NCBI GenBank assembly: GCA_003971905.1 | Contig: RSEE01000047.1 | Location: 1 to 64,000, forward strand | Direction: 5' to 3' | DNA: 64,000 nt | Origin: Moniliella sp. 'wahieum' | Taxonomy: Eukaryota | Shown here: in pieces, positions 69 to 64,000 of the stretch | Numbering within the stretch: the stretch's first letter is position 1 | Layout: each line of letters starts with the position of its first letter | The notes under the pieces: generated by a model | What the model was told of the DNA's origin: nothing | Database searches by the model: none | The model's input: the letters and a program-made list of their open reading frames with translations, nothing else | Translations under genes and position numbers: made by a program

Positions 69-121
69 TGATTAATGATGCATGATGCATGATGTGTGAC
101 GCGCTGACGCGTGACGCGTGA
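69..121 (+). repeat. 7-bp-period TGA-[palindromic tetramer] array with core switching
   Basis: TGA TTAA TGA TGCA TGA TGCA TGA TGTG TGA CGCGC TGA CGCG TGA CGCG TGA. Confidence 0.85.
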
Positions 122-1295
122 CGAGCGGGCGCCACAATGTTTGAGATCCGCCCGATGGCAAATATCTACCTTCTATCTCGGGCCAACATCCAAAATACAT
201 GTGCATAGGAAGGTACATACTGCTAGGCACAGGTGTGTGAAAGAATTGGCTGTTGTGCTTAGGGTTTAGGGTTAGGTACGTTAGACGCACACGTTTAGAC
301 GTTGATGCAGTGGAGCGTGGAGCGCTGAGCTCATGCTGAGCAGCGCTCAGGCTGAGCGCTGACACGCATTGAACGCTTTTCTGCATGATGCATGATACGT
401 CGATGCATAGTCGCTGCGGTCGATGGCGTCGATGCTCGATGCTCGATGAATTTTTGACGGATATTGTTTCTCGCCGCAAAACAGGTGTTGGGGTTATCGA
501 GTTTATCCATTAACACATCCATCCATTACCGATTAACGGATTGTCGAGAGAATCCGGCGGTTAGAGTATCCTGACCTAACATGTTTGGAAGACATCAAAA
601 CGCTTCAGCGCGCCGTTATACGCGTGCGGGGTATTGGTATAGGCCACCCAACGGCACCTCTGCACAGGGATGTTAAAAGAAGCCAACCCCTATTTCGGGC
701 CAGAGGCTGCGAAACAAGGAACACACAGAAAAACGAGGAAACATCGGACCACACACCTATTGACCTGTGGAGCTTGAGGAGGGCCCTAAAGAACCTTGAC
801 CAGAAGTCCGTGCCATCCCGTACGTCAAAAGCTCTGGTCAATTTCTTTCACATCCAATGATTAATGAGATGAAGGGAGCCTAATCAATAGCTAATCGAAA
901 TTTCTTGCGCACAATCTTGTGGGCCTTGCCCACCTTGAATTTTGTACGTAGTACTCACATATCTATCCCGAACCTTGTAACCAGCATTTTCGATTAGCTA
1001 TGATTGATGTTTGGCCATTGGAAAGAACAAAAGCCGGTGAGGAGACAGAGATCAAATGCTGAGCATTTGAGCTATAAGGACATAATGACTTTCCAGATGG
1101 TTGGTGGGTTGGCCAAGCTGGCTATATATATCATATATCATGTACGGGCTGCCTTCACATACACAAGAGGGAGAGACAACCAAATATTTGAAGAGCATCT
1201 GATGGTCCGTGGTGATGATAAAGAATAATAATCTATGCCAGTGCCTTTCCCTCCATGAAGAAAATGAAGCAATCCTGAACAGAGAATAAGGGGAC

Positions 1296-2566
1296 TCAGA
1301 ATCCCACCCTCGCCTCTTCATCTGCTGTTTTGCTCTGATGCAGTGAACGAGAGGGGAGCGGGGTTAGGGTCACGGATGAAGGATCGTGCATCTGCATCAC
1401 CTGTGTCTCGACCGTGAAGGGGACGTTGCCCACACGGTTGGGAGGGGAGGGGAGGGTCGAAAAATGGGTTATGGAGCTGCGCTCACACTCTTTGATTGCA
1501 GATGTGTTCTCCATCTCGACTTGATCAACCACGGCTTGGGTGATAGTAGATATTTGGATCGTTGCTGTGCCTTCTTGTTTCCCACTACCGCTTGAGAGGG
1601 AGGGGTATCCCGCAATACCTTTCAAGTCCAGGCCACCACCCAGCTTCAGCAGCACGAGACGATATGCACAAATGGCAGTAAAAGCATTGGCGATGGACCC
1701 ATTAATGTTGGAAAAAGTCCAGCGCTTGCTGAAAAAGAGCGCGTTGAGCAAGTTGATGGAGAGGGCACAGAAAAAGTAGATCAAACCGTCAGACATAAGA
1801 CGTTGCTGCACGACCTTGGTCAACACAGTTTGCCTGGTAATATTAACCCGCCGCCCGTGTGCGTCAAACAAGAAAGAGGCAAAGGCAAGCGAAGTGATGA
1901 GTGTGTCGAAGACAATGTTGCAGATAAAGTATGCCCACGGAATTTCGTGTCCTGGCATCGCGTAGACACACACACCCAGGTTAAGCGCATACGGGCGAAA
2001 CCAGTTGTTGAGGATAATATTGATCATAAATTGGGCCAACCAAAGGAGCGCAACGACTATCATGATATAGCGATTGCAGTGCCACATGGCCCAAGTTCGT
2101 ACGGAAAAAATGAAGGAGGCGGAGGAGGTAATAATGCTGCCAAGAAAGACGGACGCACGCCCCACGTGGTAACACTCTTGGGTTGTCCAAGAAGGTTTCC
2201 GAAGGGCATGAATGTAGAGTCCGATACAAATTGGGCTTGTGTAGCGCGCGATAAGAAAAGCTGGAGTGACAAGCCATTTGAAACCCCGCTTCCTGTGCAT
2301 GCGGATCTCAGCTGGAAATGTGATAAGTATGCTTCCAGAGGAGGTTATGTGTCAGCAGAGGTGCAGGCGTAAAAATGAAGGAGGATAGGATGAGAAATGG
2401 AGAAGGGGTAATGGCGTACTCCCACAGCAGAAAAGCAAGCAGCACCTAGGTACATACCCCGCACCAAGTCCTGTTCCAATAGCGAAGTTGGAACAGATGG
2501 GGGCAAATGCACCCTCACTCCGGGCGCAGCATGCTGCATCATATGGGTAGGTGGGTTGTCAGCCAT
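1296..2566 (-). CDS. Fungal multi-pass membrane protein (DUF6533-like N-terminus), one intron, one frameshift
   Basis: ATG at 2566 (MADNPPTHMM). Splicing GTACGC (~2419) to AAG (~2333) rebuilds 'WDILITFPAEIRMHRK', resembling the wDyllT..xE motif of DUF6533 proteins. It is followed by about 6 hydrophobic helices with 'SVRTWAMW' and 'LMSDGLIYF' and a polar tail (ORF 1296..2300). Confidence 0.75.
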
Positions 2567-4147
2567 ATGCGCAAAGGTGATGGCGATAGTGTTGGTCGTG
2601 ATGTGGGGGGAGAGGTAGAGAAAATGAGAAAATGCCAGCATGAACGCGCGAACGTTACCTCGACCTTTATATACACTTGAGCGCTTAATGAAGCTTAAAC
2701 GTTAAACCCCCAAACCATGCCAAACCCTGAAAGTGACGAAAGTACATATCGTGAGTACCGGAGAGCATTTGTGTACCGAGTTATTCCTGAGGCCCTTAGG
2801 CCTAAGGCCGGAGGGGGCTGGAGGCACAATCTTCACAAAAGTGGCCGACACCCAATCTGAGGACCTGAGGCCTGTGAGGCTCGCGCTCAGAGATCATCGA
2901 TCATCGAGATCATCGATAATCGATAATCGATAAGTGACCGGTGACCGATGACCCCAGGCGCCACAAGTGGCGCTTACGCAGGGGCACTGTGCTTGCCACA
3001 GTCCGAGTACTGAGTACTCTGTCTGAGTCGAAGAGTCCACGTATGTATACTGTGTGCTGCACTTATTTTTGAGGATTCGAAATTTTAATGAGAAAGCGAG
3101 AGAGAATGATTCACAATATCCACAACCATCACGCATCACTGCCTCTGAAATCTCAGTGAGATCTGATGCACTCAGACTCAGCAGTTGAGTACTCAAGGTG
3201 GCGCCGAATTAGATCTTCAAAAGCTTTTTAAGCTCTTTAACGTCTTCAACGTTCAATAAAAGCTTCAAGCTTCAAGCTTCAAGCTGGAATGAACGTACCA
3301 CTCCACAGGCTGTGGCCTGCTGTGGCTCTTGTGGCACACGGCAATATTCATCCTGTATCTAAGAGGTGGACGAGACGGAGTCGATCGATGATCGATGGTG
3401 TAGACGCGCGGCACGGTTCAAAAGAAACCCTAATGTTGCGTTTCGCATTCATTTAAATATTTACAGAAGTACGCGAGGATACTACGGCACCAAGACGGCG
3501 GGCAAGTTGTTTGCGCATTGGAAGGAGTTGGCTACTAAGTCTCAGTGGAAATGGTTCCTCGCTCGGATGTCAACCACGTTCCTCCGTGTCCACACGCGCT
3601 TCCTAGGGTACGGGACCGGATGGCGAGAGCCGGAGGGTCCTGATATCCTGGCGATCCCCCTGGTTCCTTGACCTTAGTGGCGCTTCCAAGTAACCCCCGC
3701 AAGATGAACGGTTCGGTTTAGACGTAGCGTTCCCCCTGTCCCAGCCTTAAGCTCTGTCAATGATATGAATTCAAGAAGTACGGCTGGGACAAAAAGAAAC
3801 GCTCTGGGCGCCTTTGGTGCTGCGCGTATAACCAGCTAATACACCCGCCGCGTCCTGCTTGCCCGTGTTATGCATGTCATGCATGTTAACTCAATTGGGA
3901 GAAGTGGAGCTAGTGGAGGGTAGCGCGGAGAAATGAAAAAGTGGTATCTCCACGTGACAACATATGAGAGCAATGAATAACGAGGAAGTGCTATTCGATG
4001 ATATTCGTATTTCTATATCGGAGGGTGCAAAAGAAAATGCCAACCCTTTTGCCCGCCGACCTGCACGTGATGGGTGGGTGGGGCTGGCTACGCCAACGAT
4101 CGGGCATATGACAGAGTCGCGTCGACGCGTCCCTCCACTACCTTAAA

Positions 4148-4400
4148 ATGCCCCCTATCCGTGCTCACTGGCGGTGCCCCCACATTGTCGCATCAACGAC
4201 CACACTCGCGCACAGTGCCCCTCCAATCCACACCGAGAGTTATACCGTCATGCCCTCGCCCTGGTCACAAAAGGCTGCCGACTGCCCACAATGCGTATTT
4301 TGCAAGACGGATGACCACCCGACGCGTCTCTGCCCTGCCCCTAGCTCTCGGTTCGGATCATCCTCCAATGATCTACAGCGTTTAAGCTCGATAGGGTGGA
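4148..4400 (+). mobile_element. Retrotransposon gag-like relic with CCHC zinc knuckle
   Basis: CVFCKTDDHPTRLC (4292-4333) fits CX2CX4HX4C exactly. No pol-like ORF is seen nearby. Confidence 0.5.
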
Positions 4401-5271
4401 TGGGTGTGTTATTTCATGCCTGCCATCCTATGGGGACTTCACTACTGGCTCAAAGGGGAGCAGTGATGCAAAGAGTACCCGCGATAGCACAACAGGCGGA
4501 GTGGTGGAACAAGGCGGAGATGTGGAGAGCAATTGGGCCTGTGGAACAAAAAGAGGGGGGAGGGGGTGGAAAAGGTGATCGGTGGAACAAGGGAAGGGTT
4601 GGAGCAAGGATAATCGGTGGACCAGAGGTGGTGGGCTCGACCCATGTAACGTGATACGACGACCCTGGGCCCTGCCAGGGGGCTCTCACCCAGGTTGATG
4701 GGGTACAATCCCTTAGGTGAAGGACGATTCACGGTAGTTTCGGGTTTGGGCGAGAAGGGAGATGGAGCGAGCAGGGCGTGTGCGGCCTGCGAGCGGAACT
4801 CTTTCGACCGGCTAAGCGAGAGCGTCACCGATCCACTGAGGGTGGGTGCAGGGGAAGCCTAGCACTACCCCCCCAACAGAAGCAAGCGAAGGCTGCCAAG
4901 GCACTAAGAATATCATCCGATAGCACTTCCTCGTAAATTATTACACTGGCACTGAGTAGTACAGATTGAGTACGGGGGCCTCTTGGGAAGACCTACCTTA
5001 TCAATTGTAACGCTTATCCCTATCCCCGTGTGCACATCATTGTCAACACGCAAAGTGGGGGCAAACTGTGTCGTATATAGTAACTGCATCAAGTGCGCGC
5101 TTCTACCGAATTTGAGAACCCAACAGGCGAAGCCTTGGGCCTGGCCACCCATGTTGATTTTCTTCTTGTAAAACCACATCTTGTAATGATCAACGATTAT
5201 CGATTAGGGATCATCGGCCGCACAGCACAATATTCCATTCACGTATACACGCCCCGGTCATACTTGACACG

Positions 5272-6351: not shown

Positions 6352-7247
6352 GATGGCGCAAAGGAAAAAGGCAGCGGGTTGCTTGGCCCGAATCCTTTCG
6401 CCCAACTCGTGTGTTAATATGCTATCGGGGGGCGGACGTAAGGCAATCTGCGCTCTTCGATCACTGGGTCGCAAAGGCCGAGATGAACTGCAGCTTCAAG
6501 TTTTCTCTAACTTTCCAATGTCAGTGTAGTCAATCACCACTTCTCAGATCTCACCACTCCTCACCACATTACTGGCACTACAGCACTGCGGACAAAAGGG
6601 ACACTGGCCGCCGAACCCCCACAGAGGGCCAGTGCCGATGCAGCCCCGCCGAGGCTGGCCGACTGGCTAAACCCCCATGCCGAGGTCGCCCGAGCCTCCG
6701 CCGCCGCCCTTATTTCCGGGCCACAAGAACCCCTTACAGGCGTGGCGGACTTGGAGCTTGGAGGCGGAACACTGGCGCAGGAATTGAAATGTACAGCGGG
6801 AGGCGGTGGCAGGCGGAGGCCACGTGTCCAACTGAAATGAACGCTGGAGGCGTGCCCTTCGTCCCAAACGGGTTACGTTGGTGCGGGACGCCCGCTCAGT
6901 GAGTGGCAATCGTGTTGCGTGTTGGGTGTCGCGTCACGCGTCAGACCCGCTGAGCATCCGACACACCAATCAGTGCAACCCTATTCTCCCTCCACGTAGC
7001 CCGTGCATGACGTAGACACGGACAAGGGCAGTGTGGGGGTCACCCGTCCCGTTGCTTCGTCGCTCACCAGCGTGAAGGCGCGGGGCCAGTGTCGGCACTG
7101 GGGCTGCTCTGGGGCCATTGCGAGCATCATGCATCGCTCCATGTCACCCCCCGCCCCCACGGCCCGCAGCATCCATCTGAACCTCCACCTCCCCTCCACC
7201 TCCACCTCCACCTCTGCCTTCTGCCCCGAGGTTGGGCTGAAGATACC

Positions 7248-10200
7248 ATGTCGCACCCTCCGCGCCATCGCCAGTACCCGCCGCTCTCGAACGCAGCGCC
7301 CCCGCCCGTGCGGACCGGTGCTCCGCCCTCGGCTCCTCCACAGGGCCCGCCGCGCGCCAGTGCTCCGCCCTCGGCGCCTCCGCAGGGCCCGCCACGCGCC
7401 GGTGCCCCGTCGCACCCCCCCGCTGGCCGTCCCCGCCACGGTGCCCCATCCGCTGTCCCCTCTTCTGTCACTGCCACCACCACGGCCACTTCGCCTCCAC
7501 GCAGTGCTCCCGCCCTGCGTCCTGCTGCTGCTCCCATATCGGTTCCCACACCCGCTTCGCTCAAGGTGTCCGACTCCGCTCCGGCCCCGCCGTCGACCAC
7601 CGCCTCGCGCAAGGCCGCCGCTTCAAAGTCTAAGGCAGCCGCTCGAAAGCCCAGAGCACGCTATGAGCCTCTTCCTCACCGCCGGGCTGGGAGGAATTTG
7701 CTACGCCACCTGTTGCGCCTAGGTATTCTTTATACTCTGTATTTATCCCTCTGGTCTTGTCCCAGCACGCCCTTTTCATTCACGTACAACGCTGCCGACT
7801 CACGTGGCCTCTGCCGCACTCTGGCATCCACTGGTGAGGTACTTGGCCCACATTTAGGTCCCTATGCCCAAGCGCTCGATGATCGGACAGCCCCGTATGT
7901 GGCGGCAGTGGCGCCTATTGCCCAGGCTGGGTTCCGTGCCACCGCCCCGGTGGTCAAGGGGATCCATCATGCGGGTCATCAGTTGTACCACAATCACGTG
8001 GCACCCGTTCAAGCTCGCTGTACGACTGCCGCCTCATCTTGGGCCGCACCCCATCTCGCCAATGTTCATGCTGTGATCGATCCACACCTTCAAACCCTCA
8101 AGACCCAGTTGGGACACTATAACGACATCTATTGGCGTGATGTGCATCAGTACGTGGCTGCAGCGCATTCTCATGTTGATGCGGGTGCCCGTGCTGGGTG
8201 GAAGGTGTATTTGAACCATGCACACCCGCGGCTGGTGCGGGTGTTTCAAGCCATCTACTCGTTCTTGGCCGACCGTCTGTTCCCTTTGATTGCTCGCACT
8301 TACGCCACGCACTTGCTGCCCCATCTTCGCTCGCTTGGGACTAAAGTGTGGGAAGGCAAGCTGGCGCTACGCACCCGTGAAGCCATCGCTTCGACCCACG
8401 TCCGCTCTCTTGGTCTCACTATTTCTGGTTGGTACACCCACGTGTCGGACAAGGCCGCTGCGTGGACCCAGCCTCGAAGCCAAGAGCCCGACCCTGCGTT
8501 CCTGGAATCATTGACGGCTGAAATCCGTGCACAGATCCTAGGGGAACAAGCAGAGGAGGAGGCGCGCAGGGATCAGCTTCGCAAGGAGGAGGAAGCCACC
8601 ACGTTTGACCGTCTCAACCTATGGGAAGTAGGCCTGACAGAGCACATTCGCAAGTCGTACAAGACTTGGACGGACCGAATCGTGAACCTCCGGGACAGCA
8701 CCATTGCTGACTTGCCTGTTCGCTTTGCTACCCTTACCGATGAGTTTGTGGACAGCGAAGCTGGTGTGGCTATTGCCCGGTTGGAGCGGCGGTTTGAGGC
8801 TTTGTCTTCGGCCAAGGACCCGCGTCCGGTCGAGGAGAGAGTGGAAATTGCCAAGCGTGGACTCAAGCGTGAGCAGAACAAGCTCTTGGCTGAGGGTGCA
8901 CAGCTGCGTAAGGAACTGCAGTCCGTGCTTACTGAGCTGGATGAAGCTGAGAAGGCATCGACGATCAAATCGGCCGACGACGTGGCGCAATTTGCCGACA
9001 CTGCCATCTCATTCCAGCAACGACTGATGTCGCAGGCGCAATACAGCGAGACAGTCTCCCGGTTTGGTCGGTGGGATCTGAGCATGCAAATGCGCGCCAA
9101 GCTCTATCGCTCCGAAATTGAGGACGTCCTCTACCGTGGTAAGCCTGTCAAGGCCGACCTGGACGTGGTGGACCCTAACAAGGCCGCTCCAGATGTGGCG
9201 ATGCACGTAGCCGACCTGCAGCAACGAACTGCGCTCCTTTACTCCGCTGCAGCTGACGCCATTCGTCGGTACGGTGTCGAGGGCATTGAGGAGCTGCGTC
9301 GCAGCCCGAAAGAGGTAATTTCTGCTGAAGAGGGGGGCAAGCGACACCAACTTGCCCTCGACGCCCTTAAGCGGGTCGCTGAGGCGGCCAAGGAGATTCA
9401 AACCCAGATTCCTCGTGCTCTTCTCGATGCGGCGTCTAAAGCCCGCGAGAGTCTTGGATGGGAGGAAATTGTCCCCGAAAACCCAGATGAGGATCTCTGG
9501 GTTGGCCCCCCTCCCGAGATTGACACTACTACTCGCATCGACGCGGCGGTGGAGGTGGAAAACAAGGTGAGAGAGCATGAAGCAGAGCAGATTGACCTTT
9601 CCCCCCTTGAGGAGGTCTCGACAGCCACGGAGGAGCTCGACACTACGACTATTCCCGTTGAAGGTCATTCGGAGGAAGAGATCGTCTTCCATGGTGCTAC
9701 AACTAGCGTATCCCCCTATGGCTACACCTACGTCAACGGACGTGCCGTCCTCGGTGGAACCACAACTCCAGGTGGGCACGACTGGTGTAGTCCAACCTGT
9801 TGGAACGGAAGACGCTGCGTTGAGTGCGTCATTTGCTTCAGAGGCTGCTACTGCGTCCGCGGCCTCCGCCTCCGCCTCTGCCTCCGCCTCCGCGACCGCG
9901 ACCGAGAAGACCACTCTGGTTGCCCCCGTAACTACTTCTGCGCCGGAAGTAATCGACACGGTAGAATCGGAGGAGGTACCTGTTGCGGAGGAGGCACCTG
10001 TTGCGGAGGAGGCACCTGTTGCGGAGGAGGCACCTGTTGCGGAGGAGGTACCTGTTGCGGATGAGGTATCTGTTGCGGAGCCTACACCAACCGAGTCCAC
10101 CGGGGCTGCTCCTCCCGGTGCCACTGCTACGAAGGTCGCTTCGAGGCGCTTAAAGTGGAGGAAATACTGACGGAACCACCACTGGAGGTTTCGGCATCCT

Positions 10201-10277: not shown

Positions 10278-10708
10278 CCTTTTTGGCCTCAACCTCGCAT
10301 GTACGGTGGAGGAGGTACGTGGCCCTCTCGCTTTGATATGGGGTGTGGATATCTGGCGTGATCGTTTCTCTGGCCATTGTAGGCTCATTAAAGAATTTTC
10401 CTATAGGGGACTTCCATCAAGCTTGGGTCTTGACGGCCTGAGGTCTGAGAGAAGATAACTCTACTGTTGGTAGCTTCTATATATGTGGAACTCGCCATGG
10501 AAAACATTTTCTTGGAAGTCAGAGGGGAACGCAGGAGAGCCTCTGTAATAACGCGAACTGGGAACTTCCAAAATTGTACCTTCCCCTATACGATGATGTC
10601 GATGATGATCGATGATTAATGGATTAATGATTACAAAAGCAACCCATTTCGGCTTCGGCCATAGTCGGGGATGAACCGGTCTAGCTTGCCACCACCACCG
10701 CCGTCGAG

Positions 10709-13350: not shown

Positions 13351-13410
13351 GGCCAGTGCCAGCCAGTGCCAGCCAGTGCCAGCCAGTGCCAGCCAGTGCG
13401 TGCCAGTGCC
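13351..13410 (+). repeat. 10-bp tandem repeat (AGCCAGTGCC, about 6 copies) upstream of galactokinase
   Basis: Direct reading. Confidence 0.9.
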
Positions 13411-15396: not shown

Positions 15397-15739
15397 CACG
15401 ATCTGATCTCTGATTGCTCCCGGACATGGGTTTTGCTTAGTTGCTGTCGCCCCACCCGCACTCGGGGCTATGTCCTATTGGAGCGGCAGTCAGTTGTGCT
15501 ACATCCTCGCCAAGTGCACTTAATGAACGAACAGCGTGAGCGTTCAGAGTGAATCTAAACGCGGAAGATATTACTGATGCCAATATTATGATGTAAAAGA
15601 TGCGCATGATTAGTGATGCATGATGAGTGATGGTCGATGGACGTAGATGCCGATGGCGGCGCTGTGAGTCCGGAATACGTCGGAGTTGAAACGACGTGAG
15701 TCTATTTTTGGCCATCTGCCACCATCTCCCGTAGGCACG

Positions 15740-19824: not shown

Positions 19825-21459
19825 GATGAGGGAATAGGAGCTGGGTGGGGGGTGAGAGCAGTAGAGGTGGTGGTGGGGAATAAAACGCGGGCGACGGGGC
19901 CAGGGGCGCAGAAACTTTATAGCGACGGCGGAGGGGCGGGGAACGGGCGACTGTGGGCTACTGGGAGAGAGGGGCGTGCGGGGCGCAGGGGCAGTGTGAA
20001 GAAGGTGCGCGGCAATGCGCGGTGGTCGTGCGCGTGCAGCAGAGAGGACGCAGTGTGCCGTGCCGCGCAGTGCCCCCCGACCGACGCGGAGAGGATGATC
20101 GATGATCCTGAGACTTGCCCGACTTGCGTGGGGCAGTATTCTTGACGCATGATGGATGGTGCAGAGAGCGGGCTGGGTGATTCCGAAGCCAAGGGAGCAG
20201 GGCAGCCAGCAGGACCCAGCTCGGAAGTCAAGGCGGTGTGACATTGGCATGGGACATGGCCCTGGCGGTGGACATGGATGGACATGGCTGGACTGGACAT
20301 GGGCATGGTGCATGGACGTCGACATGGGACAGGCGACAGGTGACATGGTGACAGGCGACACTGAACGGGTGCTGCATCTGGCTTGTGCGCACTGGCGTTC
20401 AGTCGAAGAACGCTGAGGCGCTGAGTCCTGGAGAGCTGAGGCACGGAGGCGCTGAGCAGCAGGCAGCAGGGGTGAGCGCTGAGCGAGTGAGCGCTGTGCC
20501 GCTGAGCTCTGACCAATGATTGGATGACCTGTGACCGGTGACCGGTGACCGCACAGATTGATGATCCGGGGGCACCGAGTGGGGGCAGTGTGGGCAGGGC
20601 TGGGCGCATCCATTAGCGCTGGGCAGTAGGCCAGCTGTGCGGCGAGAACCGGGCTGGGCTGCTGGGGCGCCCGTCTGAGCGTCTGAGATCTGGGCCGAGG
20701 CAGTGCACTGTTAATGCGGTTACTAGGTTGCTCTCCCACAGCAAGGGCGGCCACAGGGATCGATCGATACTCTACACCCGAGCAGCCACCACGTCTGCAG
20801 CTTCTTGCCGCGGTGCGTCAGCAGCAGCGACAATTGCCATTGCCAACGGGCGCTGCTGGCCGTTGCGCGGCACCCGCACCCGCCCTGGTGGCAATCGACA
20901 ATCCACAAAAGTCAGGCCGTGGCACAGGAGGGCACAGCGTCGGCCTGGCTAGCCTGCTCGCGCTTTGGAGAGACTGATGCCAGTGAGCCAGTGTGACCCT
21001 GAGGCTTAGGCCAGCCTGAGGCCCTGAGGCTCAGGCCGATGGGAGAACGAGATGGTCAGGAGACTACACACTGCGATCGAGCTGGAATAGGCTGGAATCC
21101 ATCACGCATCAGCCATGGCATGCATGAGCATGAACGCTCCGCGCCAGGGGGCAAGGGCGCAGCGAGCGCATGCCAAGGGCTGCGCGTAGACACACATACG
21201 TACCTCCTTCTCAGATCGCAGATCTCAATCTCACATCCCAGATCCCAGGTCGATCTCAACCACTAATCATCGATCTCAATTATCTCAGACTCACTGGCCA
21301 TTGTTTCAACGTTCAACCTCCATTCTCAACACGCAGATCCTCTGGCACGCTTCCGCAGCGTCCGCTCCACCAACACCAGGGGCATCACATTGTCACGGTA
21401 CTCAGGACATCCAACTAGACGTTCAGTCTAACGCGTGTCACATATTCACATTCAATAAG

Positions 21460-21548
21460 TGGCTAGTGACTAGTGACTAGTGGCTAGTGAAGCTTGAAGC
21501 TTGAAGCTTGAAGCTAATGATTAATGACATGTGACATGTGACATGTGA
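21460..21548 (+). repeat. Longest 7-bp-period TGA-[palindromic tetramer] array (12 units, 4 cores)
   Basis: TGG CTAG TGA CTAG TGA CTAG TGG CTAG TGA AGCT TGA AGCT TGA AGCT TGA AGCT AA TGA TTAA TGA CATG TGA CATG TGA CATG TGA. Confidence 0.92.
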
Positions 21549-22386
21549 CACAGCGACATGTGTGTGCACATGTCACGCGCCACGTGTGTGATGGAATGGA
21601 TTCGTTCAGGTGATCTGTCAACCATTCCTGTCACATGTCATTTTCATCGTACCCGGTCTTCTCTTTCCTCTACCAACGATTGCCTTGCCTCCTTTGGAGC
21701 ACTGGGAGTACTTGGTTCGCTCTATTTGCCGCTTCCCCGACATCTCCCCACGGCCCAGTTGGGGGTACTCGATACTCCCTGATGCTCCTGCTTCTTGGGT
21801 GGCGCTGAGGGCATCGGAATGAGAAGCGGCACTAGTGACGTGCCACTCTTTCAGTGCCTGTCGAGTTGGAGCGGCCACCTCCACCACAGACCACACCACG
21901 TTGAAGGTAGTAGCCCAAAAGTTAACCAACAAACTGCGTCCCACATTCGGGAGGGGCCCAAGCCAGGCTTTTCTCCTTGTGGAGCCGGGCTTGTTAGAGT
22001 ATGCCAGCATGATCGTGCACTCACATGCCATTTACTTTTGCGGCCAAGCCACTGGTATGCGGAAGTCTTCTCTTTGTTCTGCCTCTCGAGCGCATCGCAC
22101 AGGGTATCCCTTGCGGGCCTCCTTCCCCGTCCTTTCTTCTCTCCCTGTTGTACACAAGGTCGGACTAACATCAGCGCGTCATGAGCTTACGAGAAACTAT
22201 TTCGGATTGTTTCCTCCCTTCCCTTGCACAATGCAATCGTCCTTGGCTTGGTAGCGTAGCTACTTCTCAGTGAATGGACAGCCGCCGTTCTGGGCTCACA
22301 TTGAGGTGACCGATCCATCGCGCTCACCCATTGATCACCCAGTATAGCGCTTCGCCCTAGCCCCCATTCCATTCTTTCGTGGTAGC

Positions 22387-25082: not shown

Positions 25083-25822
25083 TTTTTTGCCGGCGATTAA
25101 CCAATGCCGGATCCTCACTGGTCCTGAAGGCGCTTTCCGGTACCGCGCTGGCACCACCCATGCACGACATGGCGGGGGTGCAGGACCACTGGCCACTCTG
25201 GATTAGCGAAGTGGCCGCTAGGATTTACCAATTGTACCAACCTTGGACTTGCACTAACCTAGTGCTGGGTCAGTGTCTCCTGTGCAAGGACGCTGTAATA
25301 GTACTCAATGGCTGTGGCATCTCCGTAGTTAAGTGGGAGGGAAGAGATGGCTTGAACATCCGCTCTCTCTGCTCTTCCCTCAGACGCCAGCGCGTCAGCT
25401 CAGCTGTCGCCTCGAATATAATAGCCCCTTGATTACAGTACATATATTATCCTCGCCTGACTTAGTCAGCTACTCCTTCTAAGCACTTCCACCGCTTGCT
25501 GCTTTATTGGCTCCTGTGTTTCTCTTTATCGATAATCGGACGAGCGACTAGTGACTAGTGAGACGTGGACGATCGGCCCTTGATTAATGATTGCCTGTGG
25601 TTGATATAGGATAGACTTTCTCCCTGTCCCTTTAAACACGACCATACCTACATTACCCGCCCAAACCATGCTCCTACTAATGCTGTTTTTTCTTCATCTT
25701 ACTTTCTGTATCTCGGGGGGGCAACGTAATATGGACCAACAGTCATGAAATCGGTGCGGTGGGGGTGCAGGTGCAGGTGCAGGTGCAGGAAAACAGATGC
25801 GATACGGAGGCCAAAAGCAACT

Positions 25823-41058: not shown

Positions 41059-41917
41059 GGCGATGGGGGGGGGGGGGGGGCAGAGAGGGGCGCGGGAGCA
41101 AGAGACGCGCAGGACGGCGGGGGGAGGGAGGGGGCGGCAGCCGCAATGGACGCGCCGCGTGTCTGCGCACCCGCACGCCCAGGCGGGCCAGCAGCAGCCA
41201 GCAGCAGCCAGCTGCCCCCCAGCACGCCGCAGCGGCCAGAGCGCGACGCTTACCTCATGCGGCACCGCACCAGTGTGCAGCCGTGCGCACCCACCCGCTG
41301 CGGCCCCCGCACGCCGCTGCACATTTCAAGTTTCCATCCCCCAGTGCGCATTTCAAATTGCAATCCCCACCGGATGCGCACCCCGCCACGCTGGCAGCTG
41401 CCCACGCGCACCCCAGCCGTGTTGCACCGATCCACGCAGTGCCATGGTCTCCGTCCGCCCGTCCGTGCAGAACTCGCCTCGGGCTACTCTTGCGCCCACC
41501 CCCCTTGGGCTGCGCCCACCCCCCTTGGGCTGGCGACACGTTACATGGGACTACTATACCAGCCCAGCAGCAGCCGGGCGCACCACCATGCACGTTCCCC
41601 CTTCCCTTTGGGCGCAGCGAGCAGGCAAATGAGAGTCCAGATGGGAGAGAATACGAGCAGGTTACAGTACGGAGGATGGGGACAAGGAGAAAGTGCGGAA
41701 GGACAGGAACCGAAAAAGGCATCAGTGAGAACAAAAAAAAAAGAGCAAACGCGTCGCAAGAAACGCTGGTACAGATGTAGGTACGAGCAGGGCGAATGGG
41801 GGTTGCTCCCATTCCCTGGCACCCAGCTTGGCTGCGACATGGGGCGAGGAGAGGGGGAGCGCAGCACCCTTATCAAGCGCTGCACTCCACGCCTGCAGCC
41901 TACCAGAACGCAAGCGA

Positions 41918-43388
41918 TTACAAGGCCAGTGCAGCCGCGCCCCCATTGCAGCGAGGGCCGCAGAGCCCAAGCTGGCAAACTGGGTGAGCGCCACGTCGCC
42001 AGACTTGGAGCCGTGCTGTGCATCATCGCTGCTTCCCTTGCTGGATCCAGAAGAGGGCTGCGCTGGGCTTGAGAGTGGCCTGGGAGCTGGAGGAGACAAT
42101 GCCCACTTCAATCGAGCCGACGGAGGAGGCGGTGATGTCACTAGCAGAGGGCAGGCCGGAAGGCATGATGTTGCCACCGGTGTACTGCTCAAAGTTGGGG
42201 TAGACAAACGATGCTTCACGGTACGGTTGGGTCTTGTTCTGGCACACGTGCACAGGGGTGATGTACTTGTAGGCACCGGCAATCGAAGGGTACTCTACAG
42301 GAGCAGGCAGCACAAGTTAGTAACACAATCCATCGACCAGCGGAACACGTGCCGGGGGGGGGGGGGGGACGTACCAGTGATCATCATTTGCATCGTGTCC
42401 GCGTTGATTTCATGGGTCAGAACCACGACGCCGCCAGTCTGGCCCGCGGGACCCTTGGCCTTGCTCACGATCGAGCGTAGTTGGCTTCAATCTGGGAGGT
42501 AGGGGCCGAGCCTTGGGGCTGGACGTTCCAGTCGTCCGTGTCGTCGGTCCAGATGATCGTCTCGAGGCCCAAGCCATACGCAATGGCACGGACGCGGTCA
42601 TCCACACATCACCAAACGGCGGGCGCCAAGAAGTAACGGTGACGCCCGTCACCCACTTGATCGCTTTGACCGTGTAGAACAGTTCAGCAAACACTTGGCT
42701 GCTGGTGAGCGCCGTCATGTAGTGGTGGGACCACGTGTGGGCACCAATTTGATGACCGTCCGTCAGACCACGCTGGGCTTGCAGCGGCCAGTTGAGAACG
42801 TTGGATCCAATGTAAAAGAGCGTGGCCTTCTGCTTCTTGGACTTGAGGAAGTCATAGAAGGCATTGTGGGTGCAGTTGGGCCCATCGTCAAAGGTGAGGC
42901 CCCAGGTACCAGGCTCGTCGCAAGTATACGTATCGGGCGGGATACCAGGTGCCTTGGGATGGACACACTTGGACGAAGTCCACCAGCAGTCCGGATCTTG
43001 GCCTGCATTGTACTGAGTACCCTGCTGCGAACCCGACGGCTGGCCTTTGGGGGCGTGTTGGGGATCTTGACTTGCTTCTGGATGTCAGACCAGACCGATT
43101 GGGCCTCCTGGTCGCCGTTCATAATGTCGGCGATCTGCCAGTTGGTCGGGAACGCCTTGGTAAGGACGAAGCGGGGGCGTAGTTGTAATACTTGCACTCG
43201 GTCGCCGTGTCGGTGATGGTCTGCCACGACTGGTCATTGTAGCTGGCTTGGCGGCGCTGCATCCCACGCTTTGCCACATCGGCCTGCAATGCAGGGGCAA
43301 GACGACCGGGGAAGCCGGCGCCGACGTGGGCGCAGGCCTGGCCCGCCATCAAGGTTGCCGTACTGATCAGGAACGCGAGGTTGAGCAT
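41918..43388 (-). CDS. Secreted, probably GPI-anchored chitin deacetylase (CE4)
   Basis: Signal peptide MLNLAFLIST, 'WGLTFDDGP', 'GAHTWSH', 'WRPPFGDV', Ser-rich region and hydrophobic C-terminus. Intron 42295-42374. Confidence 0.92.
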
Positions 43389-45317
43389 CTCGTAAGGGAC
43401 TAAGAACGAGTGGTGCCGTCGAGGCGCGAAGAGAAGGTGGAAGGAGAAGGGGAGAAAATCTGGGAGGGGTGGTGGTGATGGAGAGACGAAAGAGTTGGAT
43501 CCAAGGGGGAGGAAGAGACGGAGGAAGTGTGGCAATGATGCTCTTTTGGGGGGCGCGAGACCTGAGGCACAGTGGCGAATATAGAGAGCGAGTGTGCTTT
43601 CGCGCAGAGCGAGAATAGTATAACAGCCCTTGTCCGCACTGCTTGCACCCCCCGTCTGCCAAGCCGCCCAGGCTGCTCGCTCACACCCTCTAGCTGGCTT
43701 GGCGCTGCGGCTCAGCGTTGAGGCTCAACGCGCAACGCCCAACTCAGGCGCAAGAGTGAGACTCACTGGTCGCCACGGCAGGCCAGCGGCCAGTCAGCGC
43801 CGTGTGTATACGGGGCAGGGGAGGGAGCGTAGGCTGGTCGATCCAGTCAACGATGACTTTCATCGATACCAAGTGAGGCCTGAGGGTCGTTCCAACGGCG
43901 TGTCTTGGGCTGAAGCTTGGAGAGCGAGCGAAGCGATCCCAGCACTCGCCCCGTGGTGGGTGTGGAGCAGGCAGGCGAGGTGCGGGGGGGGGCGTGCAGA
44001 GCCAAGCCTTTACCCCTCGCACTAGCCCTCTGCCCCTGTGGCTCTCGCCCTTGCCTGCCCACCGACAGGCCACTCCGGGGCAGAACGGGAGACGGAGCAA
44101 GTCGGTTGACAATGGCTGGGCGCTGGAGGGGCGGGGCTCTGGCGGCGGATGATGTCAATGATGTGCCCGGTGACGTCGATGCTGCGATGATCGATGACGC
44201 TGACGGGGGTCTGGTGGGGGCAGCGGCGTGGCTGCGCAAGGGCGGGGAGGCGCACGCAAATCTCAACCAGCGGCATCATCCCTCACGCGTGGCACCTCCA
44301 GCAGAACGCCCCCGCGCCGAATCACCCACCACGCATCCGTGCAGCAGCCATTCAAACTTGCAATGCAGGCGCCCACTTCCGGAGGGCGAGCAGCTAGATT
44401 AACAAACGAATCGCCAATCGGAGCGAGAGCAGCGCGTGGGCAGCCTGCCGTCTTGGCGCGCAATCGCTTCCTTCGGAGCGTCGTCCTACACACGTGTCCG
44501 CCCTGTCCTCCCGCTCCTGACAATCCGTCGTCGCTTTCGGGCGCGGGCAGCAGGTATGGCCTAGACCTATACGCACAACGCCCAAGGCCCATGGCACATC
44601 AAGTCATGCCAATCAAGTCGGCCCCAGCATCCATTCAATTTGTTCCGTCTCCAGCTGCAAGGCGTCCCCCAGGCCTCTTCAAGTCTCAAGCTCCAAGCTT
44701 CAAGCTTCAAGCTTCAAGGTTGAACGCACCATTGAAGCTAGTTGAAGGCTTGACGTCTCAAGATCTTCGACAATCTCGCTCGCAAGAGGAGAGCGCGGTA
44801 CGACTCGCCTGGCTGTGGCAGTCACTTGTCAGGGGCTATCGGCCCAGCGGATTAGGTCATCCTCCTCAGCAGTCCGAAAAGACATGGTTGGAGTTGAGGG
44901 CCTGTTGGGCGGGAGTAACGGGACCATGCAACGGCGCCTGGGCTGTGCTCGGTGCCCGCCCGGAGCAGGTAGGCGGGGTGGCGGTTGGTGGGGGCGCTGG
45001 GCGAGCGCTAGCGTTGGTTGAGCGTCGAGTGCTCGGTGCCCGACGCAGGGGCGCAATCACCGCCCGAATGCACGGACCCCGGCGCAGCTGGCTGTGGGCC
45101 CAGCGCCAGCACCGCAGTGGAGCTGTCTGGGGCAGCAGCTGCCTCCACGTCACCGGTCACCCACCGCCCTCCCACACGCCCACGCTTCGGGCAGCTGGAG
45201 CACTGGTCAGGGTTACGTGGTAGGGTTGGGCTTTGCATGGCGTGCCTAGCAGCTGGTGCATGCAATCAAGCAATGCTGCCACACCCCCACAGACCAACAC
45301 CTCCTCTGCCCCACACC

Positions 45318-56845: not shown

Positions 56846-57721
56846 GGCGGAGGAGGGGGGGGAGGAGGAGGTGGTGGTGGAGGCGAGGGCCGCAGCGGGC
56901 CGTCAGGCAGTGCCGCTGTGCCGGGCGTGGCCCCGTGGCTGCTGGGTGCGGCTGTGCGCTGCTGTGCCCCTTGCAGCTGGCCGCTGCCCCCCGCCCCGCT
57001 GCTGCCCCTTGCGGCCCTCGGCCGTGTACATTTCAAAAGCACATGCTGCTCACGTGGAGCGCCGAGCCGCGCTGGGCCCATGCAATGCATCATGCATCGT
57101 GCATCATGCATCATGCATGGTTGCTGCTGTCTGCGTTGCCGCCAGGTGGCTCATCGATCATCATGCACCATGCATCACCGTCATGCATCCCAAGCTTTGT
57201 CCAGACCCAGGCCAGTTCTCTCCACGCACCCTCGATGCAGTCGATCGGCCGGCCTGCGCCTCTCTTTTCTCGGCGACGGCGTGGGCCGTGCGTTTTGGCT
57301 TCCATGCATCCACACCCGACGTCTATCCACGCTTATGTCTTCCTTGTTCCCCCCTTGTGCACACACACCCGAGCGGATGACGACCATCATGCACACCATG
57401 GTTTGGTCCAGCCCTCTATCACCCCAATTCCCAGACGACAGCACGGCCCACCATCGTATAGCGCCGCGGAAATATGCGTTTTCCGACTCTTCTTGCCGGA
57501 GAGGTTGCGACGCGGCCCCTTTTCCTAGGATTCGTTTTCGTCCAGTTTCCCGTATGGGCAGCCGACATGTTCTAGAGCATGACGGCGACCTCGTGAATCG
57601 TCTCTCTGTTCTCTTATACCGACAGGGACAGGGCCTCACTAGTCTCAACCTCTTAGGGACGTATACTGCAACATGCTACACCACCTGGTGGTCTGGCTTC
57701 GAGACGGCCGACCCGCCACAT

Positions 57722-57822
57722 GTTCTATTAGCTCAGTTGGCTAGAGCGTCCGACTGTTAAAGACGGCCCAGACTTGTCTATTCGACATCGGGAGGTCGTT
57801 GGTTCGAGCCCAACATGGAACG
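57722..57822 (+). tRNA. tRNA-Asn(GTT) with ~27-nt intron
   Basis: GTTCTAT/ATGGAAC acceptor, GCTC/GAGC D stem, TCCGA-CT-GTT-A/intron/A-TCGGG anticodon arm, GTTGG-TTCGAGC-CCAAC T arm, followed by T5. Confidence 0.93.
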
Positions 57823-58897
57823 CTTTTTGCCTTCCTCATATCATGTTACACCGTCCCTGCCCTGCCGTGGTACTGAATTTGCCCCGTTGATTCAACCCAG
57901 CCGATGCAGTTCAAGCCGAGGGGAACCAGAAAACGGTAGGGTTTCCTCGCAGAAGTTTGGGGGTGGGCGGATTACCTCAATAGCATGTGTGGTCCCTGTC
58001 TTTCGCTCCGTATACACCGCAGGTGAAGGTGAAGACTTGGCCGTTTTCGTGGGCGTTTGTGCCATCAGACTCTATGGCCCACATGATTGCCTGTTTCCGA
58101 TGCCACAAGCATCCGGCCCCTGCGTCTTCTCATGTCTCTCTCAAGAGCCGGACAAGAACGGGTTTACTCTTTCCTTTGTCCCTCCGTCTTGCTCCAATGT
58201 TGGCGGACCATGTGTTAGACGACAAAAAGCTGAGGCCCCCAATGCTGGCCATGTCTGCAGGATCGAGCAGGGCGGGGTGCCTCTACGGGAGTCGTGTTGG
58301 TTGGGGAGAGCACGGAAGAAATTCGTTCGCTGCACGGCATATAGTAAACAGTGGCCGATCACCTTGGTCAGCTCTGCACCCGTAAGTGCTTGTCCATCCT
58401 CCGGGCGAAGAGAGAAGGACACATGTACTGAGTAAAAGTGAGGTCCAAATTGTCCGCATTCCGACTTGCATGCTTCCACATGGAAACGAAGGGGCCTGCA
58501 GTTGGGGCAAACGAATCCCCTTAATCGGGGTGGAGAGGCTCATACTCCGCATGGGCTGGTGGAGGCGATTGATGCGCTTTCATGCGCACCTTCAATACGG
58601 CACAAGAGTCGATACATTGCTTTGACCCGATTATACGGCACCCTGACGGGTGGAGGGGACTGAGTTGGAGGTGGTGGTGCCAACAAAGTATAGGCCAACT
58701 AGTTCCCGCCCCACCCAACTGATGAATGATTTAATGATCGATGATTCATGTGATGAAGGGTGAGCGCGATGAGCATACCAAATTCCGCTCCTCACGGCGC
58801 AGTTGTCATTCCGCTGCTGGCTGCTTTGTAATGGCCCGTCGCAGCGTACCCGGCCCCACCCGGCGGCCTGGCGCCTCCCCCACCACCCTGACGGACG

Positions 58898-59478: not shown

Positions 59479-60058
59479 CGGGCGTCCCCGTGACAATCTG
59501 TCTCCCTCCCCTACTGCCTTTCTCAGGCCCAATGCACCTCATACAGAATCCTGAACTTGGTGGGACATGGGATGGTGCATCTGTGCGGGTTGCGACGGCG
59601 GCGGCTGATGCACGCACGGGAATGGAGCTATTGCTAGGCAGCTCGGAGTAGACTACGTATGAGGTGGTGCCGCTTGGGGTTGGCTCTAAAGATGGCAATC
59701 CAGCACGCCCAACCCAACCAACCCCCAGGAACAGTTTCGGCTTTGCGACACGCTTTCCTGAACCTCGGGGAGGCCACAAACTGAACGGATAATCGATCAT
59801 CCTCTAGATAATACAAGCTCTAAGATCTAGCGTTTGGATAGTCTCAGCGCCATCTCTGCACCACAGGAAGAGTCAATGACCAAAGTCGAATGGAACATGG
59901 CAATATGCAGGCCAGGGACGAGGAGGAGTGGCGGGGTGTGGGGGGTGGGGAGCAAAGGCGGAGGCCCAATCCGCTTCTGCACGAGTGAAGGATCGACGAA
60001 AGCACAACCGAGACACCGGGTGAGAATGATGCCAAATCAATGTTCTCCATGCAGGAGG

Positions 60059-61181: not shown

Positions 61182-61773
61182 GCTGGGAAGTTGGTGGGAG
61201 ATGGCCAACGTTGGCCGGGGGAAGCGACTGCCGACCCGCTGCGGAATGTCGAAAGCAAAAAAGTGGGCAGCAGAACCGCTGGGCCGCCGCACGGCGCCAC
61301 CCTCTCGACCTGTCGGGGGCACGTCCCCGCCCTTACTGCCCGCGTGCAGCGCACGCGAGCACTCGTCTGGTGCGGCAGGGCGGCGGGCGCCTCCGGCCCT
61401 CAGCGTCAGCGCTCAGCGCCCGCTGCTGGGTTCCTCCGGTTTTTTCCTTCGCCTTTGAAATTTCACATTGGACAGTTCGCGTCGCCCGCGTCACGTGCTG
61501 CTGCGTTGCCGCCTGGCCGTCTCCGCAGACACGAGGGCGCGCATCGCGCTGCTGCACCGGAGCTGCTGTCAGCGGCACTGCCCTAGTTAGAGGTTTGGTA
61601 TAGACGTGCACGGCCTGTGCCGCCTCCACTTGGTTCCAATTGTAAGCCGAGCGCGTAGTAGACCCCGCTGGCGCATTCCTCTGTTCTTCCTTGCCACCCC
61701 CCCCTCACCTTTTCGCTCAACTTGTTACCTCTCGTTCTCACTCAGCTGCTTCTGGTAGCTCACACCGCGCCGT

Positions 61774-63152
61774 CTACCTGCCGTAGTACGTCGCTACAGA
61801 GCTCAGAGACACCCATTGGATGTGACACCCGGCCACAGTCATAGCCCAACACAGTACCACAGCTGGTACACATGTCCCCACATTATGTGCGGGAGCTATC
61901 GAAGACCTAATAACGCAATCGACCGTGGGGTCGTTCGCATTGGCCATCTGGGAGTACAGTGACATACTTGTGGAGGCAGAGGAACCGTACAGCGGCGAAC
62001 AAAATCATAACTTCAGCATAAGAGGGCGGTCCGTCGGGCGGGCGGGCGGTCGTGGAGACAGGTAGAGAAAACAAAACGTATCGGAAAACGGAGTAAAGAG
62101 TATAGCAGCGTACGGTCGTAGGATCAGCAGGTCAGGACGGATGCAGATGTCGTGAATCGTTAGGGGCGCATAGGACGGTCAAAGGGCCATTCACCTAGAA
62201 TGTCCGGCGTGTCAGGCGCAGGAAAGCCAGGGCAACGAAAATGTGCCAAGTTGGTATAGGATCGCATCGAAGTGAGTCTCGGGGCCAAACAGCGGCACCC
62301 GGATTGGATACAAATGGTTGCATGCTAGTCTATATTGACATGTTAGACGTAAGACCGGACCAAACGTGTAGAAAGTGACATACTCGTTCAAAATCGGGCA
62401 ATTTACTGACCACCACGTACTTTTCCCCCTGTTGGGTTTCAACGGAGAAGTGGTGAAGACCCATTTTCTGGGCAATAACGTGGACCACTCGGCGTTCGGC
62501 GGATGTCAGGGAAGATGAAAACGACAACTCGTCTCTCATGCGATCATCATGAAAGAGAAGAATGCGAGAATAGACGTCCAGTGTGGTGGGGTCATTCATA
62601 TTGAGTTCAGGTGTTGCTGTCAGATGCGTCGTAGGCCCGAGAGGACTCGGGGGACGGGTGCACCATCAGGTTCGGGAGAGGAGCACACGACGAAAGAGGC
62701 GGCTGGAAATGATAGTTCCAGTTCTTGCCCTTTTCAATCTGGAGAGAATGCATCCTCTTGATCGCCTTGTCTTTCTCTAGTCGGTCTTTTTCCCCTGGTT
62801 TGAGCACACGCTTGTGCTCAGCCCGCAATTTACGACCCGACACATCAAAACCGTTCAAGGCAGCCACCGCATTTTCGGCGTCGGCTGCATGGTGGTAGTT
62901 GGCAAACGCTAGGCCACGAAAGATGCCTTGGTCAAAGTGGTAGTTGAACGCGTACGGCATGGGGAGCGATAAATCCGTCATCAGCGCAGCCAAACTTTCC
63001 TGAGGAAGAGTGAAAGGAATGTTTTTGATAACAATGGCGGTGGGGATAATGTCCGCTTTGGTGTGAGGCCACATAATCGGTGCAGCGGGCGCAGGGCTGC
63101 GCTTAACAGGACCAACCAAGGGGTACGGATCCACAGTGCGACCACTGCTCAT
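61774..63152 (-). CDS. Pin4/Cip1-like RRM + R3H RNA-binding protein (3' exons uncertain)
   Basis: 'IPTAIVIKNIPF', 'YAFNYHFDQGIFRGLAFANY', 'NDPTTLDVYSRILLF', R3H 'ERRVVHVIAQKMGLHH'. Splice-like signals downstream of 62385. Confidence 0.85.
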
Positions 63153-64000
63153 GATGAGAAAGTGGGAGGGTGTGCGGAGGGAAAGACGAGTGTAGGTCGT
63201 ATGTAATGAGGAGCAATGGGGTGGGCTAGGAGGACCTGCCCAACGAGCCCAGGAAGGTGGTGGAAGCAACGAGACGGAAGGCTGCGATGCGAAAACAGAA
63301 TGGTATCTGTCCAACAATGGCTGGCACAGCCCCATAACATGCACCAGGGCTTGACAACGTCTGCGGGGGGGGGGGCTCACCAATCACCGATGTGTGCGGG
63401 GACTGCGACCGGTGAGGTTGGTGAGCTGCTAGCCATGTCATAGATTAGTCAGCCGGTCAGACTCATGCGCCCCAACGTCCTGGCAGCTTGGACCCTGGCA
63501 GATGGACTTGGCCTTCCTCGGTCTCATATCCCCCGCCCTCCCGCCGCAGCCACGACGACACGTGTCAGACAGGCATGGCGCCACTGCTCCAGATGATACG
63601 TCTTTCACGGTAATTAGGGTAACCGGTAACTGGCCCCAGAAGTGAGCTCGATGTGACTCGTGAATGCGTGAACGGGTGAACGTGGAGACGTAGGACATTG
63701 GCCTTCCTCCATGGTCACTCGAATTCTTGAGGCCCAGGCTTGCCAGCTGCACGCCTCAAATTTCAAAAGTCTTCCATGGAACGCCTCGTCGGTCCATTTC
63801 CTTTTCCGCCGTAAAACAATGGGAAAGTGAGCTGCTCAGGCAATTCACATGCTATGGCGCAAGCGCCCAATGAAGCCAGTGACTAGTAACTAGTGACTTA
63901 TTAGCGCTGTTAGCGCTTAGTATGTTAGCTGTGATATTATTTTGAAATTTTGACTGGGAACCGAGAATCCGGAATTCAGGGAATAGGCCTTCCTGACATT

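Follow-up and report, generated by a model that had tools for sequence, protein, structure and literature searches.

Introduction

Enzymes of the hAT, Transib, RAG1 and MULE groups form hairpins on flanking DNA, and these are opened by host nucleases and rejoined by end joining, leaving footprints (PMC5499845; this paper, PMC5873905, PMC12730594 and PMC4081816 are all cited here from excerpts of their texts). At sites from which Ds has excised in Candida and yeast the footprints contain P-nucleotide palindromes; in Candida there were 28 footprint types among 128, with palindromes centred on the base complementary to the one next to the element (PMC5873905). Basidiomycete transposons that make 7-bp target duplications are hAT7, in rusts (Pucciniales), and Kyakuja (KDZ), in Laccaria and other Agaricomycotina (PMC12730594); KDZ elements of Cryptococcus make duplications of 8 bp (preprint). 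Small intergenic repeats of 10 bp in a related smut fungus, U. maydis, were read as transposon footprints in a 2012 study, as cited in PMC4081816. Described here is a family of short arrays, and of isolated single units, in 64,000 nt of DNA from Moniliella sp. 'wahieum' (contig RSEE01000047.1, positions 1-64,000; “the window”), in which T-N-A triplets (TNA) recur every 7 bp around a tetramer that is usually palindromic. Each unit proves to be an insertion of 7 bp templated by the bases that flank the triplet, and its form is compared with that of known excision footprints.

Palindromic cores in period-7 arrays

All counts for the window are limited to these 64 kb, and many of them were compared with shuffles of its sequence; dinucleotide shuffles (n=30) were used for period-7 self-identity, 100 shuffles for 10-mers and 50 or 20 for 12-mers. 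Exact tandem runs of at least two units are found 51 times at period 7, 9 times at period 8 and 3 times at period 9, and there are 55 period-7 self-identity runs with at least 7 matched positions where the shuffles give ~3.4. Of the 51 period-7 runs, 28 have units that consist of a 6-bp palindrome and one further base. In all 28 the palindrome has the form A-NNNN-T, and the spacer base is G or C in 27 of them and A in one.

When this is expressed as 10-mers, with a 4-bp palindrome (pal4) between two copies of a triplet, TGA-pal4-TGA is present 37 times against a shuffle mean of 0.88. For TCA-pal4-TCA the count is 30 and the mean 0.82, and none of the 100 shuffles gave more than 4. An earlier note on this DNA, made from sequence alone, had drawn attention to the arrays and proposed a comparison of palindromic cores with shuffled sequence; run on the window, it gives the predicted excess (67 vs 1.7 for TGA and TCA combined). 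TAA-pal4-TAA (5 vs 0.14) and TTA-pal4-TTA (3 vs 0.20) also occur, and none of the remaining triplets is seen in such 10-mers more than 7 times. The cores are drawn from 15 of the 16 palindromic tetramers. The earlier note had noticed neither AATT, ATAT nor TATA among them; ATAT is indeed absent, but TATA and AATT are each present twice. The 18 array intervals that it cited all contain 7-bp-phased TNA units, and 17 contain at least one exact TNA-pal4-TNA, the exception being 33405-33444, which is TGA-phased with cores that are mostly the non-palindromic CCAG. The four single cores that it placed at 12633, 3004, 20473 and 33472 are likewise all there.

The two TNA triplets around a pal4 agree in their middle base in 75 cases (1.6 expected), whereas their middle bases are complementary in 9 (2.5 expected). 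It is clear from this excess that the TNA copies are direct repeats and not inverted ones. Perfect 10-bp palindromes (TNA-pal4-TN'A, where N' is the complement of N) were considered as the underlying rule and rejected, since they amount to merely those 9 cases.

The elementary event is a templated insertion of 7 bp

Let ab and cd be the two bases before and after the original T-N-A, and a', b', c' and d' their complements. The core is then the mirror image of the dinucleotide that flanks the TNA, with that dinucleotide itself before or after it, and there are two mirror products, ab-TNA-b'a'ab-TNA and TNA-cdd'c'-TNA-cd. Flank templating on at least one side is seen for 66 of the 75 TNA-pal4-TNA pairs. 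Counted on both strands, the 12-mer ab-TNA-b'a'-ab-TNA occurs 86 times (TCA 40, TGA 38, TAA 5, TTA 3), where 0.22 (50 shuffles) or 0.45 (20 shuffles) would be expected, and the two mirror products are about equally frequent (41 vs 45). The combination of lengths is also specific: at TNA only five direct plus two inverted bases (5+2; 86 vs 0.45) and the equivalents of this in arrays are enriched, with 5+0 at chance level (5 vs 5.65) and 5+1 at 9 vs 0.85. No enrichment was seen in the window for the other self-complementary triplets (ANT, GNC and CNG) or for other periods.

Thirty of the 86 12-mers are isolated, the periodicity not continuing to the left or right of them. What a minimal event adds beside a T-N-A is therefore five direct and two inverted bases, and not a duplicated 7-mer. 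Each unit is a templated +7 insertion, and the arrays are stacks of such insertions. Stepwise removal of exact events from the window takes out 65 events, or 455 bp, at 39 loci, compared with 0 to 2 events in shuffles (n=10); 25 of the loci hold one event, 10 hold two and four hold 3 to 8. The composite array at 69-121 shows how the removal proceeds. Its TGA units carry the cores TTAA, TGCA (twice), TGTG, CGCG followed by an extra C, and CGCG (twice), the palindromic ones each combining one half of the original flank with the mirror image of that half; taking out five events leaves two neighbouring TGA sites, and TGTG, the sole non-palindromic core, is the original spacer.

Minor products and the size of the duplication

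Taken alone, the main product is compatible either with a 5-bp duplication plus two inverted bases or with a 7-bp duplication centred on TNA. Rarer products were also found. Plain tandem duplicates of ab-TNA-cd, in which the core is not palindromic, occur 4 times (vs 0.18), +9 products retaining cdd'c' plus ab twice (vs 0.05), and a +11 product retaining both overhangs, and thus both palindromes, once (vs 0.00). These minor products duplicate both ab and cd, and a 7-bp duplication is therefore favoured over one of 5 bp. Furthermore, six +8 products fit the same model (vs 0.13), and among all nine +8 products the extra base is a flank base in six.

Several of these classes come together at 32962-33003, where a single CT-TGA-AC site has given, side by side, a plain duplicate (ACCT), both mirror products (AGCT twice, L-type, and ACGT, R-type) and the +11 product (ACGT+AGCT). 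Plain 7-bp duplication centred on TGA is also seen at 34987-35007, with the non-palindromic core AGGC, and a TGA-phased run at 33405-33481, mostly of the CCAG cores already mentioned, is of the same type and is accompanied by the isolated TGA-GATC-TGA at 33472. At 37521-37561 a plain duplicate (AGGG) is found with CCGG units and an AGCT unit. The +9 products are at 2901, within an array with TCGA cores on TCA and TAA and then CCGG on TGA (2894-2951), and at 10594, in a set of TGA units with TCGA and TTAA cores (10594-10633). Examples of +8 products are TGA-CATG-G-TGA at 20341-20356, in which the extra base is flank base b, TGA-GGCC-C-TGA at 21017-21032, and a TTAA core with an added A at 58720-58744, which is accompanied by TGA-TCGA-TGA.

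The position of the palindrome centre was also informative. Products with an even apex number 41 + 45 = 86 against ~0.3 (0.15 each in shuffles), and odd-apex products, of the hAT type, number 2 in total against ~1.5 expected, which is no excess. An 8-bp hAT model from which one base is lost fits only 4 of 14 six-match cases and, with odd-apex products at chance level, was judged unlikely. A 3-bp duplication like that of PIF/Harbinger was rejected: hairpins at the TNA ends would be expected to yield palindromes centred on the end of the TNA and to add only 3 bp, and TNA-TNA shows no enrichment (45 vs 35.7).

Target preference and placement

The inferred ancestral sites (n=45) share only the T-N-A, in which N is C in 20, G in 20, A in 3 and T in 2; their flanks are uninformative, and N is mildly richer in G or C than at the 2482 TNA sites of the window as a whole. 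T-N-A is a small symmetric target, of the kind that dimeric transposases use. The 5+2 geometry is also found, at a lower rate, at triplets other than TNA, most often TGG/CCA (11 matches), and many of these triplets are one change away from TNA. After phase artefacts inside TNA arrays had been removed by eye, the non-TNA total was roughly 30 against ~9 expected. It appears, therefore, that the palindrome comes from the geometry of repair and the TNA from the preference of whatever makes the cut. The CCA/TGG sites at 38946-38965, 6750-6763, 20304 and 44115 resemble a secondary target of the same process, the first being an array, (CCA-TGCA) x2.9, with the geometry seen at TNA. The palindrome rule also holds at TGC, which is one base off TGA, in a period-7 array at 429-448, (TGC-TCGA) x2.9.

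As a proxy for coding DNA, use was made of open reading frames (ORFs) with Pfam support (16; 18.9% of the window) or of stop-to-stop ORFs of at least 150 codons (65.7%), neither set being gene models. None of the 75 TNA-pal4-TNA matches lies inside the 16 Pfam-supported ORFs, and 16 of 49 clusters lie inside any of the stop-to-stop ORFs, compared with their 65.7% coverage. The statement in the earlier note that no arrays lie in exons is thus supported indirectly, as judged from ORFs. Since an insertion of 7 bp causes a frameshift, its depletion from exons is to be expected and says nothing about function. Two arrays adjoin the upstream ends of supported genes (32800, 36853). The first, (ACGCGT-C) x2.9 at 32793-32819, is immediately upstream of an amine-oxidase ORF (32248-32799, minus strand), and the second, (ACGCGT-C) x2.7 followed by a CATG unit at 36852-36879, is at the upstream edge of a phosphatase ORF (35627-36859, minus strand).

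The window itself is nuclear and comes from a member of the Ustilaginomycotina; its G+C content is ~58%. Among named proteins, a galactokinase fragment is nearest to that of Tilletiaria anomala (59%), with Exobasidium, Thecaphora, Ceraceosorus and smuts next, and it matches another assembly at 84%. The genes with Pfam support are ordinary housekeeping genes. An open frame of 1017 codons at 7011-10061 (plus strand) has no Pfam match and probably encodes a low-complexity, repeat-rich protein; its in-frame repeats include 18 bp x6.3 (9968-10080), 42 bp x2.2 (7318-7409) and hexamer runs.

Other loci in the window

The richest locus is at 21460-21550, where adjacent arrays with CTAG, AGCT, TTAA and CATG cores hold 8 exact events. 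At the other extreme is an isolated single +7 scar at 856-867, AA-TGA-TT-AA-TGA, whose flanks are not periodic. Another isolated scar, GC-TGA-GC-GC-TGA, lies with an ATGCAT-G pair at 353-395, and TGA-TGCA-TGA is found within a degenerate TGA-phased run at 15607-15632. Arrays of a single repeated hexamer include (ACTAGT-C) x3.3 at 37182-37204 and an (AAGCTT-C) array at 44679-44723, the outer units of which are degenerate. In other cases such an array has a differing neighbour: TCA-ACGT-TCA precedes (AAGCTT-C) x3.7 at 3246-3285, TGA-GCGC units precede (ACCGGT-G) x3 at 20473-20551, (ACTAGT-G) x2.3 is found with an isolated TGA-TTAA-TGA at 25545-25590, and (ATGCAT-C) x4.9 with an isolated TCA-TCGA-TCA at 57085-57160. 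Finally, at 63880-63919, CTAG units on TGA and TAA are found with TTA-GCGC-TTA.

Two kinds of simple sequence were seen as well. Beside the heptamer scars near the start of the window, at 259-276, is a telomere-like run of the TTAGGG type (~2.5 units), which may be an interstitial telomeric remnant or reflect a subtelomeric position. Homopolymer runs of 15-16 G are found at 32873-32887, 41065-41080 and 42354-42368, in G+C-rich DNA that is intergenic or at the edge of an ORF.

Occurrence outside this genome

Public metagenome contigs were scanned for three AGCT units, and 121 loci were obtained. Across the 77 loci of at least 1.5 kb, 10-mers with other cores show no overall excess (31 vs 30.1), so that the majority of (TGAAGCT)n arrays elsewhere are probably of an ordinary kind. 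With the ascertained array masked, the stricter 12-mer gives 25 further clusters in the 543 kb of the 121 loci against 1 in a shuffle, and these are concentrated in a few contigs. The 12-kb contig L062 contains GATC, CCGG and several separate AGCT arrays together with singletons, and a helicase fragment that it encodes is 84% identical to a protein of Lactarius deliciosus. As far as sequence can tell, the grammar exists in Agaricomycotina as well and is not an artefact of one assembly. The Lactarius-like contig suggests that the process could be widespread in Basidiomycota and has gone largely unnoticed.

Pfam searches of the ORFs of this contig and of a second one, L034, gave no match at first. 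At 2117-4587 and 7899-10036 (minus) L062 carries two tandem paralogous RNA helicase genes of the MOV10/SDE3 type. Helicases of this type have been linked to RNA silencing of transposons.

Discussion

The balance tips slightly towards the units being excision scars, very stereotyped ones, of a cut-and-paste transposon with a 7-bp duplication centred on TNA, and not functional elements. An element from outside the window would insert at T-N-A, with N mostly G or C, and duplicate the 7 bp ab-TNA-cd centred on N. At excision both flanks would become covalently closed hairpins, the tip of each lying exactly at the end of the duplication. A host nuclease would then nick each hairpin 2 nt 3' of its tip (3 nt would give the same product because T pairs with A), producing self-complementary 3' overhangs of 4 nt, c-d-d'-c' and b'-a'-a-b, one on each flank. 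Ligation of each 3' end to the recessed 5' end of the opposite flank would add exactly 7 bp with a 4-nt mismatch, which replication or repair would resolve to ab-TNA-b'a'ab-TNA-cd or ab-TNA-cdd'c'-TNA-cd. Each new TNA would be a target again, and one of them would lie in a perfectly symmetric 7-mer with cohesive overhangs, which may help arrays to grow. With targets renewed in this way, repeated visits would stack the units into short arrays. Together, the proposed transposon, its hairpins, the position of the nicks and the order of ligation would account for the sequence rule, the flank templating, the strict +7 size, the preference for TNA and the minor classes that are observed.

Several results weigh against excision by such a transposon. 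No element with inverted ends flanked by a TNA duplication was found in the window (one candidate against 0.3 expected with 7 bp, and 5 against 2.9 with 5 bp, all weak), and searches of it for 3-bp TNA duplications with inverted ends, and for inverted ends with a target duplication of any kind, stayed at chance level. No transposase Pfam domain was detected in 119 of the 166 ORFs of at least 130 amino acids (the other 47 were outside the scan). A single geometry dominates, which would call for an unusually fixed nick position, whereas known hairpin footprints are heterogeneous; the scans would miss scars that carry deletions. Even palindromes are not the signature of hAT elements, and hAT7, the well-studied 7-bp candidate, fits poorly. 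Moreover, 14 of the 39 loci hold 2 to 8 events, more than independent hits on 2482 TNA sites would give, and this obliges one to assume a hotspot effect or later slippage.

As a separate observation, the best inverted repeat in the window, 3967-4009 / 4905-4947 (43 nt, 81% complementary), brackets ~900 bp of non-coding DNA; neither a boundary nor a target duplication is clear, and it could be a small element that has decayed.

If the units are indeed excision scars, one mobile element or nuclease has left about one recognisable scar per kb of the window (65 events, 455 bp), and these would document transposon excision clearly and genome-wide. A de novo route would lead from any T-N-A to short tandem repeats and palindromic hexamers, one that needs neither slippage nor a pre-existing repeat. 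The near-invariant geometry would imply unusually precise hairpin opening and end joining in this fungus. The rule would also allow scars to be stripped computationally, so that ancestral promoter sequence could be recovered and the activity dated.

The most interesting alternative to transposon excision, though an unlikely one, has no resident transposon. A host or domesticated hairpin-forming nuclease, or abortive hit-and-run transposition, would break TNA in open promoter DNA with a 7-nt stagger, and repair would write the +7. At least 39 loci are scarred, and yet no element or transposase was found in the 64 kb (119 of 166 ORFs scanned); the events tend to be bunched in a small number of short segments, 21460-21550 among them, and their stereotypy exceeds that of known excision footprints as these are given in the excerpts of PMC5873905. 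Against this, a 7-bp duplication with hairpins at both copies is explained most simply by insertion followed by excision, many scars alongside few copies would equally be left by a single low-copy element with a long period of activity, and the absence of an element from one window says little. We know of no precedent for a hairpin-forming nuclease that writes such scars. Were an element-free process nevertheless at work, it would be an endogenous DNA-writing process that makes arrays of palindromic hexamers beside genes, from relatives of the smuts to Lactarius.

Somewhat less probable again is a Transib/RAG-like element with a 5-bp duplication (NN-TNA), in which the opening would fall at the tip of one hairpin but 2 nt away from the tip of the second, leaving P nucleotides on one side only. 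Transposition by Transib and RAG makes target duplications of 5 bp, the commonest product in the window is literally five direct plus two inverted bases, and the palindromes share the even form of those at RAG/Transib coding ends. However, this would require an asymmetric target around the symmetric TNA and two hairpins opened in different ways. It cannot yield the plain ab-TNA-cd duplicates (4 vs 0.18) or the +9 and +11 products, it leaves unexplained why the extra base of +8 products is a flank base in 6 of 9, and no such element was found in the window.

The earlier note had offered a fold-back or template-switch synthesis process as one of its two explanations. The fold-back part comes close, in that the two inverted bases would correspond to the off-centre opening of a hairpin, but hairpins formed at transposon excision fit better than template switching by a polymerase. 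Stated as a replication error, the nascent strand would fold back or switch at T-N-A, copy two complementary bases, realign and recopy five, with arrays growing by slippage; this we regard as improbable. It would place an inverted copy beside a direct one, as in template-switch mutations, and arrays of identical units could grow by slippage. Nevertheless, free DNA is unlikely on steric grounds to fold back around a loop of a single base (T-N-A), and the realignment would have no homology to guide it. Neither a strict +7 at a 3-bp motif, equal mirror products nor products with both overhangs are predicted, and other periods and the triplets ANT, GNC and CNG are not enriched.

The other explanation in the earlier note, a structural or protein-binding promoter code, is not borne out. 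In its selected form, phased TGA half-sites or palindromic hexamers would be bound by transcription factors and kept in promoters, and the units do lie outside supported coding ORFs, some of them immediately upstream of genes (32800, 36853). There are also palindromic hexamers, ACGCGT for instance, that look like known factor-binding sites. The use of 15 of the 16 cores, the setting of the core by its flank (66 of 75), the many singletons (30 of 86) and the same geometry at non-TNA triplets are nevertheless properties of a mutational process and not of a selected site, and no single protein could read such variety. A regulatory code is therefore very improbable as the origin of the units, and it was for the diversity of cores and the flank templating that a homotypic cluster of transcription-factor sites was also rejected; some scars may have been co-opted secondarily as regulatory sites. 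An assembly or sequencing artefact is highly unlikely, since the arrays are at most ~90 bp and easily read through, unique flanks provide the template for the rule, and the same grammar is present in independent metagenome assemblies.

Comparison with known systems

No description of a 7-bp palindromic scar centred on TNA was found in the literature, with one possible precedent, the smut repeats that PMC4081816, in the part cited here, mentions. The TNA-pal4-TNA motif is 10 bp long, and those repeats may be unrelated to it or the same thing already noticed. Short micro- and minisatellites that arise by slippage resemble the arrays in being head-to-tail and in non-coding DNA, and slippage may have added or removed units later. 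As their origin it was rejected: what the arrays share is a rule and not a unit, with 15 cores, 30 isolated events, flank templating (66 of 75) and one favoured period.

The window was then set against excision footprints made through flank hairpins in general. Direct duplication on both sides of the junction is present, as a 5-nt repeat in the 86 main products and as the full 7 bp in the plain, +9 and +11 products, and so is a flank-templated inverted copy at the junction (5+2, 86 vs 0.45). A resident element with defined ends in the same duplication was not found in the 64-kb window.

Footprints of Ac/Ds and other hAT elements in plants, S. cerevisiae and Candida albicans are alike in retaining the duplication and in their short inverted bases templated by the flank, and they too are made by hairpins, host opening and end joining, according to the excerpts of PMC5873905. 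They differ in the odd centre of their palindromes and in their heterogeneity; the scars of the window are even and of one geometry. Among hAT elements the target duplication is 8 bp, or 7 bp in hAT7, and a net gain of 7 bp matches only hAT7 among these lengths. For both hAT7 and Kyakuja the likeness is confined to the 7-bp length of the duplication and to the shared phylum, and neither was found in the window; Kyakuja does occur in Agaricomycotina, the group of the Lactarius-like contig.

V(D)J coding joints and Transib/RAG excision are alike in that their palindromes are even and start at the end of the retained flank, and in the off-centre nick of the hairpin. At V(D)J coding joints the P nucleotides are typically 2 nt per end and the joints vary. 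Transib/RAG differs in its duplication of 5 bp, whereas the scars here have +7, a T-N-A target and a near-invariant outcome, and a general Pfam scan of 119 of the 166 ORFs of the window showed no RAG1-like gene. The agent that would have left these scars is thus best stated as a putative element that makes a 7-bp duplication centred on TNA and whose flank hairpins would be of the even, RAG/Transib-like kind.

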